DNA of 64,000 bases from contig JBGARZ010000005.1 in NCBI GenBank assembly GCA_044229975.1, positions 1 to 64,000 of the forward strand, given 5' to 3'. The number at the start of each line of letters is the position of its first letter. Position 1 is the stretch's first letter. A model generated the notes under the pieces. It ran no database searches and was not told the origin of the DNA. It was given only the letters and a program-made list of their open reading frames with translations. Both the position numbers and the translations under genes were made by a program. This DNA is from Polyangiales bacterium (GTDB lineage Bacteria; Myxococcota_A; Polyangia; Polyangiales; Ga0077539). Below, piece after piece: positions 20,778 to 50,129 of this stretch.

Positions 20778-20951
20778 GATCTCGACCCGATGTCGAGGGT
20801 GGTATCCGGTCACTCAAACCAATCTCCACCCGGTCCCGATACCGGTCCACCATCGGTTCCAATCAATCTCCACCCGGTGTCGACACTGGTCCACCATCGG
20901 TTCCAACCAATCTCCACCCGGTGTCGACACTGGTCCACGAATGGTTTGACC
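20778..20951. repeat. Non-coding 44-bp tandem repeat array (about 4 copies)
   Basis: Unit AATCTCCACCCGGTGTCGACACTGGTCCACCATCGGTTCCAACC starts at 20821, 20865 and 20909; degenerate copy at 20778. Confidence 0.88.
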
Positions 20952-41648: not shown

Positions 41649-42389
41649 ATGAACTCCGTGCTGATTCTCGGCGCCACCTCTGCCATCGCCGCCGAGGCCG
41701 CCGTCCTCTACGCCCGCCGGGGCGACCGCTTGCACCTGGTCGGCCGCAACCCCGCCAAGCTCGCCGACGTCGCCCGCCGCTGCGAGGGGACCACCGTCAC
41801 CACGGCCGTCGCCGACTTCGCCGCGCTCGACGCCAACGAGGGGGTCGTCCGCGACGCCGTCTCCACCCTGGGTCGCCTCGACCGGGTGCTCATCGCGCAC
41901 GGCGACCTCGGCGATCAGCTCGCGAGCGAGCGCAGCTTCGACGACGCCGAGGCCATCCTGCGGGCCAACTTCACCAGCGCGGTGTCGCTGTTGGTTCCGA
42001 TTGCGAATGTGCTGGAGGGGCAACGGAGCGGGCGGTTGGGGGTCATCACGTCGGTCGCGGGCGACCGGGGGCGGCCGCGCAACTACACGTACGGGGCGGC
42101 CAAGGGGGCGCTGTCGATCTACCTCCAGGGGCTACGGACGCGGCTGTACCCGACGGGGGTCACGGTCACGACGCTGAAGCTCGGGCCGGTGGACTCGCCG
42201 ATGACGCGCGACCACGCGAAGCACCCGCTCTTCGGCAAGCCCGCGGCGGTGGCGCGGGGCATCGTCGCGGCCGTCGATCGTGGGGCGGCGGAGGCGTATG
42301 TGCCGGCGTTCTGGGGGGCGATCATGCCGCTGGTGAAGGCGACGCCGGAGCGGGTGTTTCAGTGGCTGCCGTTCTTGTCGGGGCGGTGA
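41649..42389 (+). CDS. Short-chain dehydrogenase (DprE2-like)
   Basis: ILGATSAIA; SVAGDRGRPRNYTYGAAK. Confidence 0.88.
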   Translation: MNSVLILGATSAIAAEAAVLYARRGDRLHLVGRNPAKLADVARRCEGTTVTTAVADFAALDANEGVVRDAVSTLGRLDRVLIAHGDLGDQLASERSFDDAEAILRANFTSAVSLLVPIANVLEGQRSGRLGVITSVAGDRGRPRNYTYGAAKGALSIYLQGLRTRLYPTGVTVTTLKLGPVDSPMTRDHAKHPLFGKPAAVARGIVAAVDRGAAEAYVPAFWGAIMPLVKATPERVFQWLPFLSGR

Positions 42390-42450
42390 GTCGGAGGCCG
42401 AGCACCGAGAGACCTTGAGGCGGGGGTGGCGCTCATCTGCCGCGAGGGCG

Positions 42451-42622
42451 CCCCGGGACATCCCGGCGCGGGTACTCGTCCGACACGAACCCGCCCCGGG
42501 ACATCCCGGCGCGGGTACTCGTCCAACACGAACCCGCCCCGGAACGTCCCGGCGCGGGTACTCGTCCAACACGAACCCGCCCCGGAACGTCCCGGCGCGG
42601 GTACTCGCCCGACACACGGCAG
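42451..42622. repeat. Non-coding 43-bp tandem repeat array (4 copies)
   Basis: Unit CCCCGG(G/A)AC(A/G)TCCCGGCGCGGGTACTCGTCC(G/A)ACACGAACCCG at 42451, 42494, 42537 and 42580; last copy degenerate. Confidence 0.92.
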
Positions 42623-42753
42623 CCCCAGGACACCGTTTCTCGCCCTCGTGTCGAATTCGTCCTCGATCCCGCAACTCCGCCCGGTGGTCGTTCCGAAGAG
42701 AGCGCGTTCCAGGCACTGCGCATGGTGCGCCCCGCCCGGAACGGAGTTCTTCC

Positions 42754-43470
42754 ATGGATCAGTACATCGACAACAACGAGACCCAGACCTACGGCGACCG
42801 CTTCACCAGCAACCTCCGACTGATCTTCGGGGCCGACGCCCCGGAAGCCGTCCGCACCATCATGGTATGGTGCGCCGACCGGGTCGCCACCTCCACCCTC
42901 GCGATGCGCACCGCGATGGCCTCCAGCCGTGGGGCCCTCTCCGCGCGTAGCCACACCTCGGAGGAGAAGCTCGCCGCGGTCGTCACGGCGCGCCACGAGC
43001 TGCGATCCTTCGCGCTCCACCTCGCCGCATCCAGGTCCGACCAGCGCAACCCCTGGAACGGCGATCCCAACCTCTTCTTCCCTGGCGGCCGCTCCAGCAT
43101 CGGCGAGGGCGCTCGCAACGTGCGCGACGCCACCGCCATCGCCCGCAACGCCCTCGAAGGCGACCCCACGGTCCCTGCTCGCGCCGCGTGGTCCGATCGC
43201 CTCGACGCGCAGGTGGCGGCGCTCGACCCGTTGGTCGCTCGCGGCGACGAGGCGGAGCGCGCGGGCCGCACCACCCTCTCCGAACAGTCGTCGGAGAAGC
43301 GCGCGTGGCTCCGCACCTACCGCGGCGCGGCCCTCGTGCTGGAGGGATTGCTCCTCATGGTCGGTCGCGAGTCCGAGTACACCGCCGCGGTCCCCCACCT
43401 CACCGCGCCCAACACCCGCAAGCGGCGCGACGGCGTGCCCAACGCCCCCATCCCGACGCCCGTCGGCTGA
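42754..43470 (+). CDS. Hypothetical, apparently helical cytoplasmic protein (238 aa) downstream of the repeat array
   Basis: GGAG RBS 7 nt before ATG; GC3-biased codons; no recognisable family. Confidence 0.75.
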   Translation: MDQYIDNNETQTYGDRFTSNLRLIFGADAPEAVRTIMVWCADRVATSTLAMRTAMASSRGALSARSHTSEEKLAAVVTARHELRSFALHLAASRSDQRNPWNGDPNLFFPGGRSSIGEGARNVRDATAIARNALEGDPTVPARAAWSDRLDAQVAALDPLVARGDEAERAGRTTLSEQSSEKRAWLRTYRGAALVLEGLLLMVGRESEYTAAVPHLTAPNTRKRRDGVPNAPIPTPVG

Positions 43471-43697
43471 TCGCTCCGTCCCCTCCGCGCGCTGCTGATC
43501 TCACGCGGCGCGCGGGTTGACCCTCCCCTCCCCCGCAGCGCTACGGTCCGTGCCCACGAAGACTGGCAGCCTCACGGTCGCTCCCCCTCGCTCACGCTCT
43601 GGGTCTGGCTCCGCGTTCTGGGACGTCGCGGTCGAACCGCGCGCGGACCAGACCCGACCGTCCCCCGCTCTAAGGTCGCGGGCGCGACGTGTGAACG

Positions 43698-44576
43698 TCA
43701 CCCATGGGGCTGCGCCGCCATGAGCCGCGCGATGCGCTCCTCCAGTGGAGGGTGCGACGCGAAGAGCCTGGCGATGTTGCCGCCGCGGATACCAAACGCC
43801 GTCATGCTCTCCGGGAGCTGCGTCTGCTCACCCGCGCGCCGCAGCGAATCGAGCGCGCCCGCCATGTCGCGGGGACTGGTGAGCGACGCCCCGCCCGCGT
43901 CGGCGCGAAACTCCCGGTAGCGGCTGAACCACGCGACGATGAGCGACGCGCCAAGCCCCAGCACGATCTGCGCGATGGTCACCGTGATGACGTACCCGAT
44001 GCCGCCGCGCGAGCGCTCGCGGTCGCCGCCCGAGAGGGCCGTGTCGACGACGGTTCCGATGACGCGCGAGAAGAAGATCACGAAGGTGTTGAGCACGCCC
44101 TGCACCAGCGTGAGGGTGACCATGTCCCCATTGGCGACGTGGGCCACCTCGTGGCCGAGCACCGCCGACACCTGCTCGGGGCGCATCGCGTTGAGCAGCC
44201 CCGTGCTCACGGCGACGAGGGCGCTGTTGCGGCTCCACCCGGTGGCGAAGGCGTTGGGGTCGGCCGAGTCGTAGATGCCCACCTCGGGCATCCCGATGCC
44301 CGCGCGGCTGGCGTGCGCCTGCACCGTCTGGACGAGCCACGCCTCGGACTGCGAGCGCGGCGCCTCGATGACGTGCACGCCCATCGACCACTTCGCGATG
44401 ATCTTGGAGAGCAGCAGCGACACGAAGGAGCCGCCGAAGCCGAAGACCGTCGCCATCACGAAGAGCCCGGCCCACTGCCCCTCCGGCAACACGCCCGCGA
44501 TCTCCAGGCCGAGGAACACCACACCCAGCAACAGCGAGACGGCGAGGTTGGTCGCGATGAGGATCAGAAGTCTCAT
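43698..44576 (-). CDS. htpX: Zinc metalloprotease HtpX (M48)
   Basis: PNAFATG, HEVAH..NGDMVT, FSRYREFRAD and SHPPLEERI. Confidence 0.95.
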   Translation of the reverse strand: MRLLILIATNLAVSLLLGVVFLGLEIAGVLPEGQWAGLFVMATVFGFGGSFVSLLLSKIIAKWSMGVHVIEAPRSQSEAWLVQTVQAHASRAGIGMPEVGIYDSADPNAFATGWSRNSALVAVSTGLLNAMRPEQVSAVLGHEVAHVANGDMVTLTLVQGVLNTFVIFFSRVIGTVVDTALSGGDRERSRGGIGYVITVTIAQIVLGLGASLIVAWFSRYREFRADAGGASLTSPRDMAGALDSLRRAGEQTQLPESMTAFGIRGGNIARLFASHPPLEERIARLMAAQPHG

Positions 44577-44651
44577 GGTGGTTGTGCCGAGCGTGGCGAG
44601 GCCACGCCGATGAGTCAACCATCCGCTCCATCACGGGTATCCTCCCGCTCC

Positions 44652-46665: not shown

Positions 46666-49600
46666 CTATCGGTCGCAGGTCGTGATGTTGGTGAAGCTGA
46701 ACCAGTAGATCGGGTGCAGCGCCCCCATGCCGTAGACGCCGTCGACGGCGACCTGTGAGGTGGACTGCGGGAAGGACGAGTAGTCCACCCAGCGGCCGTT
46801 GTTGTTCACGTCGGAGAGGATGCGGTACGTCGCGCCCGCCGTGATGCTCCAGCTGGGAGTGAACACGAACGACGGCGCGCCCGCGGGCACCGCCACCGTC
46901 GCGAGCGTGGTGCCCGCGCCGTCAGTCAGCCGGATGGTGTCGGCCTGGCCCTGGTTCTGGAAGCGCACCGACGTGATGGTCGCGTTGCGCAGCGCGCGGA
47001 ACTGCATCCCCGACGTCGGCCACCCGTTGATGTTGTTGGTCAGCGTGGGACCGGCCACGGCGCCGCAGACGCCGACGCACGTCCCGGCCGTGCAGGTGAG
47101 GCCCGCGCCGCACGCGCCGCCGCAACGACCGCAGTTGGCCGTCGAGGTGCGGAGGTCGACCTCGCACCCGTTGGCCGGGTTGCCGTCGCAGTCGCCGAAG
47201 TTGGAGTCGCAGGTGAAGCCGCACACGCTGCCCGCGCAGGTGGCGGTCGCGTTGGCCCGCGGCGGGCACGCGTTTCCGCACGCCCCGCAGTGGCTCACGC
47301 TCGACGTCAGCGCCGTCTCACACCCGTCGGCGCGCGAGGCGTTGCAGTCCCCGAAGCCCGAAGCGCACACGAACCCGCAGGTGCTCATCGCGCACGCCGC
47401 GCGCGCGTTGGTCGCCGCCGGGCACACGGTGCCGCAGGCCCCGCAGTTCGTCGGATCGACCGCCGTGCTCGTGCAGGCGAGCCCGCACGCGGTCAGCCCC
47501 GCGCCGCAGCTCACCTGGCAGGAGCTCGCCGAGCACACCTGGCCCGACGGGCAGGTCACGCCGCAGGCGCTGCAGTTGAGCCGATCGTTGGTCAGGTCGA
47601 CGCAGCGACCGCCGCACACCGTCTGCCCCGACGGGCACACCAGGGTGCACACGCCGGACGTGCAGACCTGACCGGCCACGCACGCCGTCCCGCACGCGCC
47701 GCAGTTGGCCCGGTCGGTCTGGAGGTCGCGGCACACGCCCGAGCACGCGATGAGGCCCGTGGAGCACGACAACACGCAGGTGCCGCCGGTGCAGACCTGA
47801 CCCGCGGCGCACGCCATCCCGCACGCGCCGCAGTGGGCCCGGTCGGTCTGGAGGTCGCGGCACACGCCCGAGCACGCGTTGAGGCCCGCGGCGCAGCTCA
47901 CCACGCAGGCTCCGCCCACGCACACCTGGCCGCTCGCGCACGCCATCCCGCACGCGCCGCAGTGGGCCCGGTCGGTCTGGAGGTCGCGGCACGACCCGGT
48001 GCAGTTGGTGAGCGATCCGCCGCACGACACGGTGCAGGCGCCCGCGGTGCAGAGCTCGCCCGCCGCGCACGCGCGGCCGCACATCCCACAGTTGGTCGGG
48101 TCGGTCTGGAGGTTGCGGCAGATGCCGCTGCAGTTGGTGCCGGGCGTTCCGCACGACACGATGCAGGCCCCGGCCGAGCACACCTGACCAGCGGCGCAGG
48201 TCACCCCGCACGCGCCGCAGTTGGCGCGGTCGGTCTGGAGGTCGCGGCACGACCCGGTGCAGTTGGTCTGCGACGCCGGGCACGACACCTCGCATCGGCC
48301 CGCGGTGCACACCTGGCCCGCCGCGCACGCCATCGCGCAGCCGCCACAGTTGGCGCGGTCGGTCTGGAGGTCACGGCACACGCCGCTGCACGCGGTGAGC
48401 GCGCCGTCGCACGAGATCACGCACACGCCCGCGGCGCACACCTGGCCCGCCGCGCACAGGATCCCGCACGCGCCGCAGTTGCCACGGTCGGTCTGGAGGT
48501 CGCGGCAGGTCGTGCCGCAGGTGGTGAGCCCCGTCGGGCACGAGACCACGCACGCGCCGTTGGTGCACACCTGACCCGCCGAGCAGGTCGTTCCGCACCC
48601 GCCGCAGTTGGCCCGGTCGGTCTGGAGGTCGCGGCACGAGCCCGCGCACTCGGTGAGGCCCGCCACGCACGACGTCACGCACGCCGAGCCGGAGCACACC
48701 TGACCCGCGGCGCACGCCATGCCGCAACCGCCACAGTGGGCGCGGTCGCTGGTGAGGTCACGGCACGAGCCGCCGCAATCCGTGAGGCCCGCCACGCACG
48801 ACGTGACGCACATGCCCGCCGAGCACACCTGGCCCGCCGCGCAGACGCGCCCGCACATCCCGCAGTGCGCGCGGTCGCTCTCCAGCTCGCGGCACGAACC
48901 GCCGCAGTTGGACTGACCCGCCGGGCACGACGTCACGCACATCGCGCCCGAGCACACCTGGCCCGCCGCGCACGCCGTCCCGCAAGCGCCGCAGTTGGCG
49001 TTGTCGCTCTGGAGGTCGCGGCACGACCCCGAGCAGCTCGTCTGACCGACCACGCACGACGTCACGCAGGCGCCCGCCGAGCACACCTGGCCGGTCGCGC
49101 AGGCGGTGCCGCAGGTGCCGCAGCTCGCGCGGTCGCTCTGGAGGTCACGGCACGCGCCCGAGCAGGCCGTCTGCCCCACCGGGCAAGAGGTCTGGCAAGC
49201 GCCCATCACGCAGGCTTCGCCGGGCATGCACGCGACGCCGCAGCCGCCGCAGTGGAGCCGGTCGGTCTGCGTGTCACGGCACGCGCCCGAGCAGTCGACC
49301 TGACCCGTGGGGCACGAGGTCACGCACGCCCCCGCGGAGCACGCCTGACCGGCGGCGCAGGTGGTCCCGCAGGCGCCGCAGTTGGCGCGGTCGGCCTGGA
49401 GGTCGGCGCACACGCCCACGCCCCCGTCGGCGGTCGCGCCGCACACGGTGAAGCCCGGCAGGCAGCTCACCACGCAGCGGCCCGCCTCGCAGGCGCGCCC
49501 GGCGCCGCAGGCGTTGTTGCACGCGCCGCAGTTGACCGGATCGCTGGAGAGCATCGCGCAGCGGCGCACACCACCGGCGCTGGTGCAGGTCTCCAGGCCC

Positions 49601-50037
49601 GTCTGGCAGTTGGAGGCGCAGGCACCGTTGGAGCACACCTCACCGGGGCCGCAGCGACGGCCGCACGCGCCGCAGTGGTTGCCGTCGGTCTGGAGCAGCA
49701 CGCACACCTGCGCGCCGCCATCGCCTTCGAGCGCGCACGCCTGCTGCGCCGACGGGCAGGCGGTCTGGCACTGACCAGCGACGCAGCGGTCGCTCCCGGT
49801 GCAGCGGCGGCCGCACGCGCCGCAATTGTTGTCGTCGGTCGCGGACGTCACGCAGCGGCCGTCACAAAGGAGCTGGCCCGCCCCGCACGTGAGGCCCTGG
49901 TCGACGGCGATGTCTACTGTCACGTCCTCCCCCGCGTCATTGCCGCTGACCACGGAGTTGGACGAGGTACAGCCTGTCGCCCACAGCGCCGCCATCATCG
50001 CGGCGGCGATCAATCGATATCTTGCTGGTTGTTGCAT
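46666..50037 (-). CDS. Giant Cys-rich repeat lipoprotein (MXAN_6577-like repeats) with C-terminal beta domain
   Basis: Lipobox ATGC; about 21 copies of a ~43-aa unit (129-bp period) C.DLQTDR.(N/H)CG.CG..C..GQVC..G.C. Confidence 0.9.
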   Translation of the reverse strand: MQQPARYRLIAAAMMAALWATGCTSSNSVVSGNDAGEDVTVDIAVDQGLTCGAGQLLCDGRCVTSATDDNNCGACGRRCTGSDRCVAGQCQTACPSAQQACALEGDGGAQVCVLLQTDGNHCGACGRRCGPGEVCSNGACASNCQTGLETCTSAGGVRRCAMLSSDPVNCGACNNACGAGRACEAGRCVVSCLPGFTVCGATADGGVGVCADLQADRANCGACGTTCAAGQACSAGACVTSCPTGQVDCSGACRDTQTDRLHCGGCGVACMPGEACVMGACQTSCPVGQTACSGACRDLQSDRASCGTCGTACATGQVCSAGACVTSCVVGQTSCSGSCRDLQSDNANCGACGTACAAGQVCSGAMCVTSCPAGQSNCGGSCRELESDRAHCGMCGRVCAAGQVCSAGMCVTSCVAGLTDCGGSCRDLTSDRAHCGGCGMACAAGQVCSGSACVTSCVAGLTECAGSCRDLQTDRANCGGCGTTCSAGQVCTNGACVVSCPTGLTTCGTTCRDLQTDRGNCGACGILCAAGQVCAAGVCVISCDGALTACSGVCRDLQTDRANCGGCAMACAAGQVCTAGRCEVSCPASQTNCTGSCRDLQTDRANCGACGVTCAAGQVCSAGACIVSCGTPGTNCSGICRNLQTDPTNCGMCGRACAAGELCTAGACTVSCGGSLTNCTGSCRDLQTDRAHCGACGMACASGQVCVGGACVVSCAAGLNACSGVCRDLQTDRAHCGACGMACAAGQVCTGGTCVLSCSTGLIACSGVCRDLQTDRANCGACGTACVAGQVCTSGVCTLVCPSGQTVCGGRCVDLTNDRLNCSACGVTCPSGQVCSASSCQVSCGAGLTACGLACTSTAVDPTNCGACGTVCPAATNARAACAMSTCGFVCASGFGDCNASRADGCETALTSSVSHCGACGNACPPRANATATCAGSVCGFTCDSNFGDCDGNPANGCEVDLRTSTANCGRCGGACGAGLTCTAGTCVGVCGAVAGPTLTNNINGWPTSGMQFRALRNATITSVRFQNQGQADTIRLTDGAGTTLATVAVPAGAPSFVFTPSWSITAGATYRILSDVNNNGRWVDYSSFPQSTSQVAVDGVYGMGALHPIYWFSFTNITTCDR

Positions 50038-50129
50038 GGACACTCCCGTCGGCCGCGAGCTGCAGCCGACGACGAACGTATCGCAACTCGGACCCAGGGC
50101 CCCTGACGGTTTGAAGCGACGTCCTCGCG

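Follow-up and report, generated by a model that had tools for sequence, protein, structure and literature searches.

Upstream of a gene for a 238-amino-acid protein without a named family, the genome of a Polyangiales bacterium carries a tandem array of near-palindromic 43-bp units. This raises the question whether repeat and gene belong together, and what the repeat may be for. The window analysed here comprises the first 64,000 nucleotides of contig JBGARZ010000005.1. A prediction made from its letters (in the following, the original prediction) took the locus for a repeat-plus-protein system, either a pair of repeat RNA and protein as in type III toxin-antitoxin loci, or a series of phased sites for the adjacent protein.

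Array, leader and gene at the locus

Both the array and the gene are real (Table 1). Tandem Repeats Finder recovers the four predicted 43-bp units as 3.9 copies at period 43 (95% matches, score 285), and the 14-bp dyad displays the variants described for units 1-2 and 3-4; unit 4 departs from the others in its final few bases. The two stems that had been noticed in every unit are both present, but they do not constitute separate features. The whole 43-bp unit is a near-palindrome, with 32 of 43 positions complementary in one alignment (1 of 300 shuffles was as good), and a near-palindromic unit in a periodic sequence has two axes half a period apart, so that the previously described dyad and second stem are one and the same feature. 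A scan of the array against Rfam found no family near its cut-off; matches to two microRNA-precursor models, both far below their cut-offs, were dismissed as hairpin matches. Two other repeats occur in the window. A second array at 20817-20938 (44 bp x 2.8) is of unrelated sequence and has no orphan helical gene beside it, and the region 46666-50043 encodes a cysteine-rich repeat protein of 1125 amino acids with a coding period of 129 bp (43 amino acids).

Table 1. Features of the module and its flanking genes (positions in the window)
Feature	Position	Strand	Basis and remarks
Tandem array, 3.9 x 43 bp, near-palindromic units, two dyad axes 21.5 bp apart	42449..42615		Tandem Repeats Finder and dyad alignment
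Array plus decayed edges	~42421..42632		Lag-43 match, -333 to -122 relative to the start codon
14-bp dyad of unit 1	42453..42466		Axis between 42459/42460; second axis centred on 42481
Leader between array and gene, 138 bp	42616..42753	+	Promoter/terminator consensus scan, folding
Shine-Dalgarno-like GGAG	42743..42746	+	Sequence
Gene of the 238-aa protein, no named family	42754..43470	+	ORF; predicted all-helical rod, two-fold homodimer
SDR gene (PF00106), flanking, outside the module	41649..42389	+	Pfam
htpX-like M48 peptidase gene, flanking, outside the module	43698..44618	-	Pfam

The module lies between the SDR and htpX genes that had been named as its neighbours, both confirmed by Pfam. 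A consensus scan of positions 42300-43800 returned 0 terminator-like sites, hence none in the 138 bp between array and gene, and no promoter consensus in this leader. The leader had been suggested to lock the ribosome-binding site, which the data do not support: it folds no better than its shuffles (z -0.54), the site is equally hidden in 13.5% of 200 control genes, and its median accessibility is 0.43 in 18 homologues versus 0.40 in controls. Over 112 bp the leader is about 78% identical to that of a 68% paralogue on contig C10 (L002). The array upstream of this paralogue is G-rich on the strand of the gene, despite the common leader, and matches the window unit at 24 of 43 positions in reversed and 21 of 43 in direct orientation (95th percentile of shuffles, 23), hinting that the array may have been inverted or replaced there.

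Predicted structure of the protein

As originally stated, the 238-aa protein cannot be assigned to a family: searches of Pfam, NCBIfam and PADLOC gave it no match, and none of the families in these collections is common to more than 4 of 90 members of the homologous group, termed family A below. The predicted model (pLDDT 95, pTM 0.79, 90 sequences) is all-helical without any strand, with helices at residues 7-24, 31-95, 120-136 and 143-202, corresponding to two modules of a short and a long helix each. Sequence support for an internal duplication is weak (29% in family A, 67% in family F). Modelling of two copies yields a two-fold homodimer via residues 30-43 and 187-204 with a score of 0.69, compared to 0.00 for the best of 3 controls; contacts agree by at least 97% between runs, and the pLDDT of the partner is at least 83. 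In a benchmark, 20 of 30 proteins whose solved structures are pairs of one chain attained this mark, as did 1 of 23 whose structures hold a single chain; with the own alignment used here, these counts apply only roughly. The modelling supports a two-fold homodimer joined at one end.

Sequence searches of solved structures gave a best E of 0.014, and Foldseek found 0 matches at E 0.001 in the PDB and viral libraries. VIA-align returned only generic helical bundles for the 238-aa protein (best Z 9.9, rmsd 2.2, 103 aligned), which leaves room for a relative, and likewise for one family D protein (best Z 8.6). No known DNA-binding family or fold was matched in these family and fold searches. Despite conserved basic positions at 72, 80, 85, 182, 193 and 205, family A as a whole lacks a basic composition (median pI 6.5, median net charge -1); the median pI is 5.5-6.3 in families B-F.

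Arrays and orphan genes in the host genome

The module is not unique in its host, a genome of 10 Mb with 71% GC. Tandem Repeats Finder lists 22 rows at period 43 there, compared to 2, 4, 3 and 1 at periods 41, 44, 46 and 47, and a lag scan with our own gene calls displays intergenic arrays at 41 bp (2), 42 bp (21), 43 bp (25) and 44 bp (3), in total 51. All 25 period-43 arrays are intergenic; some of the 42-bp rows are possibly coding repeats that the gene caller missed. The array sequences split into many unrelated families. Beside many arrays lie orphan genes of 220-300 amino acids, which form eight families (A-H) with 32 genes, six of them in family A. The genome hence holds at least 32 such orphan genes and some 50 arrays, none with a family name, and its relatives carry similar numbers of both. 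A match to six family profiles lies within 1.3 kb of 18 of the 51 arrays and the rest are solo, while two further arrays adjoin genes of families G and H. Inside the units, a sub-period of 10-11 bp appears as weak peaks only (0.04) in arrays of the host genome, and not at all in those of family A. Matches of two other orphan genes to a PQLLE family are far below cut-off, and the term was found in no paper searched. One family A member without an array (L004, G000:C32:860628-861974) has an open frame of 449 amino acids, about 200 longer. In four genomes (L006, L123, L124, L130), a family B orphan gene is the immediate neighbour of a CRISPR-like array with period 61; in L006 (G000:C11:441073-443337) the gene and a 43-bp array lie between cas1 and the CRISPR array.

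Several of the solo arrays are 69-87% identical copies of gene-linked ones. There is 1 gene-less copy of the window array, there are 1-2 for five others, and there are 32 for one 42-43-bp repeat family (G000:C32:665623), mostly solo, with some downstream of family E, F or G genes. An occurrence of the window repeat throughout the genome independent of the gene had been named as evidence against a system; this applies in part, as the repeat is found once elsewhere without the gene of the module (L019, G000:C27:148200-148430, 79-81% identical). That copy lies upstream of an aminotransferase-like gene and adjoins 53-bp REP-like arrays. About 30 such separate tandem arrays of 53-54 bp exist in the host genome, several of them abutting 43-44-bp arrays, and at G000:C26:70460-72492 (L115, 87-578) a Y1 transposase of 163 amino acids (PF01797) lies between two inverted ones in a RAYT-like layout.

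The gene-less copies may suggest that the arrays are footprints of mobility, similar to REPINs or repeat-bearing MITEs, with the repeat spreading along with the module and having no role as its partner. None of the 11 relatives examined has the module behind its SDR orthologue, and a close homologue occurs on a Planctomycetota record, as this explanation would have it. On the other hand, the 11 relatives also lack the other neighbours, so that the whole neighbourhood is unsyntenic and offers no clean empty site; none was found either among the short pieces obtained from four of the 17 DNA sequencing runs listed for the genome, in which it has small shares (no RNA run was listed). The module has no transposase or recombinase, in most pairs of a gene-linked and a gene-less copy the likeness stops within a few tens of bases outside the repeats, and BLAST displays no terminal repeats. 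The REP-like family of the host is a different repeat with its own Y1 transposase. Mobility would also leave unexplained why a fixed period goes with a free sequence, and we consider it quite unlikely.

Arrays beside homologous genes in other genomes

Family A has 102 matches among representatives at 50% identity. Of 301 genomes examined in the phylum, 18 contain a match, and of 30 genomes in the host's family, 22. From the best matches (up to 30 per search), 48 near-full-length loci were retained after three duplicates were dropped. An array of 41-44 bp lies within 500 bp at 18 of them (11 upstream, 6 downstream, 1 on both sides). Without the six loci of the host genome the count is 14 of 42, compared to 0 of 42 at seven control periods, which supports the predicted repeat-plus-protein system. 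A lack of arrays at most homologues had been expected to speak against such a system; this is partly the case, as 28 of these 42 loci have no detectable array. Part of the lack falls on a clade of 16 members with conserved flanks and 0 arrays, outside of which 14 of 27 loci have one (the clade was singled out post hoc). This clade (L005 and 15 relatives) belongs to one bacterial family and is divergently oriented to an ECF sigma factor-like gene, as read from the translation; it is possibly a domesticated copy. More distant family A matches have arrays at 9 of 18 loci.

For families B, C, D and F, homologues were taken from other genomes of the order where the flanks measured 300 bp or more on each side; a 41-44-bp array lies within 500 bp at 7 of 27, 18 of 27, 14 of 26 and 8 of 21 loci, in total 47 of 101 compared to 1 of 101 at control periods. 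Kin among these loci and those of family A are not independent, while the repeat sequences differ between loci. As background, 300 random genes give 1-2 arrays per side at lag 43/44. Within the host genome, 14 of 32 orphan genes versus 12 of 1803 genes have arrays, a comparison with a bias, since 20 of the 32 had been chosen for lying beside an array, so that the pairing rests on the counts from outside genomes instead. None of the other 12 reached a score of 25 at the tested lags; four scored 20-27 at 42-43.

The pairing of 41-44-bp arrays with genes for rod proteins is real, widespread and undescribed, with the period kept and the sequence free. In the literature searched (main texts, with few subscription papers) it is described nowhere. 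Once protein identity is under about 40%, units are no more alike than shuffles (means 25.3, 20.9 and 19.7; shuffles 19.7), and no sequence or structure is shared across the arrays. A neutral minisatellite beside an orphan gene by chance might account for units that vary and decay at the edges, as well as for the many solo arrays. This is contradicted by the period peak at 41-44 bp and by the excess of arrays that other genomes display next to five protein families, and appears very improbable.

Position, symmetry and polarity of the arrays

Of 73 arrays of the families examined, 50 lie upstream of the gene, ending 53-371 bp before the start, and 23 downstream, beginning 1-389 bp after the stop. 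A significant dyad of the whole unit is present in only 25 of 73, and the innermost pair is complementary in just 48%. Dyad mismatches on the strand of the gene are A.C in 127 and G.U in 59 cases for upstream arrays, and 26 and 16 for downstream arrays. The sense strand folds better in 14 and the antisense strand in 36 of the 50 upstream arrays. The arrays are also polar: upstream, 39 of 50 have their C-rich strand pointing to the gene; downstream, the sense strand is G-rich in 16 of 23. C-skew on the strand of the gene is +0.135 upstream (39/50 positive) and -0.051 downstream (7/23 positive), compared to +0.001 to +0.048 in ordinary intergenic DNA.

As this polarisation goes beyond intergenic skew, outward-transcribed RNA stays the main rival explanation. 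The array would then act as RNA, with its G-rich strand transcribed away from the gene, as a divergent transcript for upstream and as a 3' extension for downstream arrays, and the rod protein would bind the repeat RNA. The better folding of the antisense strand upstream is consistent with this, as is the strong fold of the window array as RNA (z -4.6), although any tandem palindrome yields strong folding. Neither a common sequence or structure across the arrays nor an Rfam family near its cut-off accompanies such an RNA, however, and the sense strand of downstream arrays has no excess of G.U. Periods cluster at helical multiples, which a single-stranded RNA does not need. We regard a function as RNA as rather unlikely.

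The periods could also reflect a helically phased control element for a host factor, such as a nucleoid protein or a regulator, with the rod protein merely encoded by the controlled gene. Among 43 non-independent arrays, host genome (p 0.007) accounts for the exact period no less well than protein family does (p 0.013), and arrays of 21, 32 and 33 bp beside full-length proteins correspond to about 2 and 3 helical turns, so that periods of some 2, 3 and 4 turns occur. A host factor would likewise agree with proteins that lack basic character or a DNA-binding fold, and with many arrays that have no such gene. One factor should impose one motif, however, and the arrays of the host genome fall into many unrelated sequence families; moreover, a third of arrays are downstream of the gene. 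Control by a host factor appears unlikely on this basis.

Kinship among the protein families

Profile comparison links families A and F (95%, E 1.8e-8, 194 columns) and families C and E (93%). Links of family A to B (58%), D (28%, E 6.5e-4) and C (9%) are weak and change with other alignments (75%, 19%, 41%). The profiles show only in part that the families are one superfamily. Pfam scans of families D (29 members) and F (24) found no shared family; of families B and C some host-genome members were scanned. Family D is DUF6261-like: one member passes the cut-off of PF19775 and has a 42-bp array, and the predicted model of the family displays a helix pattern related, though not identical, to that of family A. 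PF19775 has no match in the 238-aa protein or in the host genome, and is not among 25 of the 31 families listed for the 90 family A members. A weak lead in the Atlas points to a cluster of DUF6261 (0.89, with the family on 32% of members). The 238-aa protein is not a DUF6261 member.

A possible mechanism

Based on this dataset, we hypothesize, at a probability of roughly 0.45, that array and gene are the two parts of one module, with rod dimers arranged in a row along the double-stranded array. The predicted rod-shaped protein would bind its own array as DNA, and dimers would align end to end, one per 43-bp unit. The modelled dimer has its axis close to residues 36 and 194/195. A second two-fold contact, assumed for the opposite, pseudo-equivalent end (offset 106-113 residues), would extend the dimers to a chain. 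The axis spacing is then predicted as 67-78 A (from residue counts at 1.48 A per residue, not coordinates), corresponding to a period of 40-46 bp of B-DNA, and the axes of the array, 73 A apart at half a period, fall inside this range. A coated array beside the gene may serve as a self-regulating or DNA-organising tract, and gene-less copies may be extra loading sites or leftovers.

The choice of DNA rather than sense RNA rests on arrays on both sides of the gene, on the excess of A.C over G.U mismatches upstream and on the off-size arrays of 21, 32 and 33 bp. Phased sites on double-stranded DNA, which the original prediction had offered as its second option, fit better than an RNA antitoxin, while binding by the adjacent protein itself is put forward tentatively. 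Counting against coating are the non-basic proteins without a known DNA-binding fold, the array-less clade, and the fact that most arrays of the host genome have no gene. A strict ruler set by the protein agrees less well than helical phasing with the 21-, 32- and 33-bp arrays beside full-length proteins; the low share of arrays with a whole-unit dyad (25 of 73) and the grouping of the exact period by genome speak against such a ruler too. A purely two-fold lattice leaves the polarisation of the arrays unexplained.

A wider model, which we consider doubtful, would extend the coating to a superfamily reaching from myxobacteria to DUF6261, whose rod proteins build linear lattices on chosen tracts. 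Protein length would set the four-turn period, protein and repeat sequence would drift together, and a genome would hold dozens of locus-specific coating systems without a known DNA-binding fold. If the proteins do read their arrays, this would amount to a new kind of DNA recognition, by rod and period rather than by helix-turn-helix, and to a natural set of orthogonal protein-array pairs. It would also offer a first way into a large set of genes without annotation, perhaps with DUF6261 among them. The pairing of arrays with rod proteins is here extended to Myxococcota families without a Pfam entry, for which we infer the function.

Comparison with known systems

Type III toxin-antitoxin loci (ToxIN, CptIN, TenpIN), to which the original prediction had likened the module, have short tandem repeats upstream of one gene, and so has the window. 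The layout of array, hairpin and gene and a unit length within the range of such RNA antitoxins (31-46 nt for aligned ToxI; PMC3401426) are in favour of this comparison. In these loci, a terminator lies between repeats and gene, and the toxin is a Kid/MazF-like RNase (PMC3401426). The module has no terminator-like site, and its all-helical model differs from a Kid/MazF-like ToxN; the 238-aa protein has no ToxN, CptN or TenpN family or RNase fold, and the 90 homologues display no consistent toxin family. Arrays lie on either side of the gene, with 23 of 73 downstream, and most homologues have none. A toxin-antitoxin locus with an RNA antitoxin is hardly credible given these differences. Guide arrays of the CRISPR or TIGR kind differ as well, since the window units are 95% identical throughout without variable spacers, and the protein belongs to no Cas or Nop family.

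REP/REPIN-RAYT systems, too, have dispersed arrays of repeats, with copies that lack the gene. In Porphyromonas gingivalis, MITEPgRS contains a tandem 41-nt Repeat C between terminal inverted repeats (PMC2575886, PMC4596501), and resembles the arrays described here in its period as well as in dispersal with gene-less copies. The linked gene of the present module encodes no transposase, BLAST of the boundaries of solo copies identified no terminal inverted repeats, and one period is common to many repeats of unrelated sequence, unlike in REPIN-RAYT or MITE systems.

At the sopC site of the F plasmid, a 43-bp unit containing a 16-bp inverted repeat occurs in 12 direct copies, with SopB as the partner of the site (PMC3177203). 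An array of repeated dyads, as in ParB/SopB centromeres, is found at the window locus too, and both cases combine 43-bp tandem units carrying a dyad with an adjacent gene whose product could bind as a dimer. The present protein has no ParB or helix-turn-helix match, and its neighbours are an SDR and an M48 peptidase gene instead of a ParA, ParM or TubZ motor gene. Compared to sopC, the module is chromosomal and multi-copy, with 2-7 units rather than 12 and with a repeat sequence that differs per locus at a kept period. The DUF6261 proteins differ from the 238-aa protein, which has no PF19775 match and whose families have arrays downstream as well; they resemble it as orphan helical proteins of similar size beside an array of about four helical turns.
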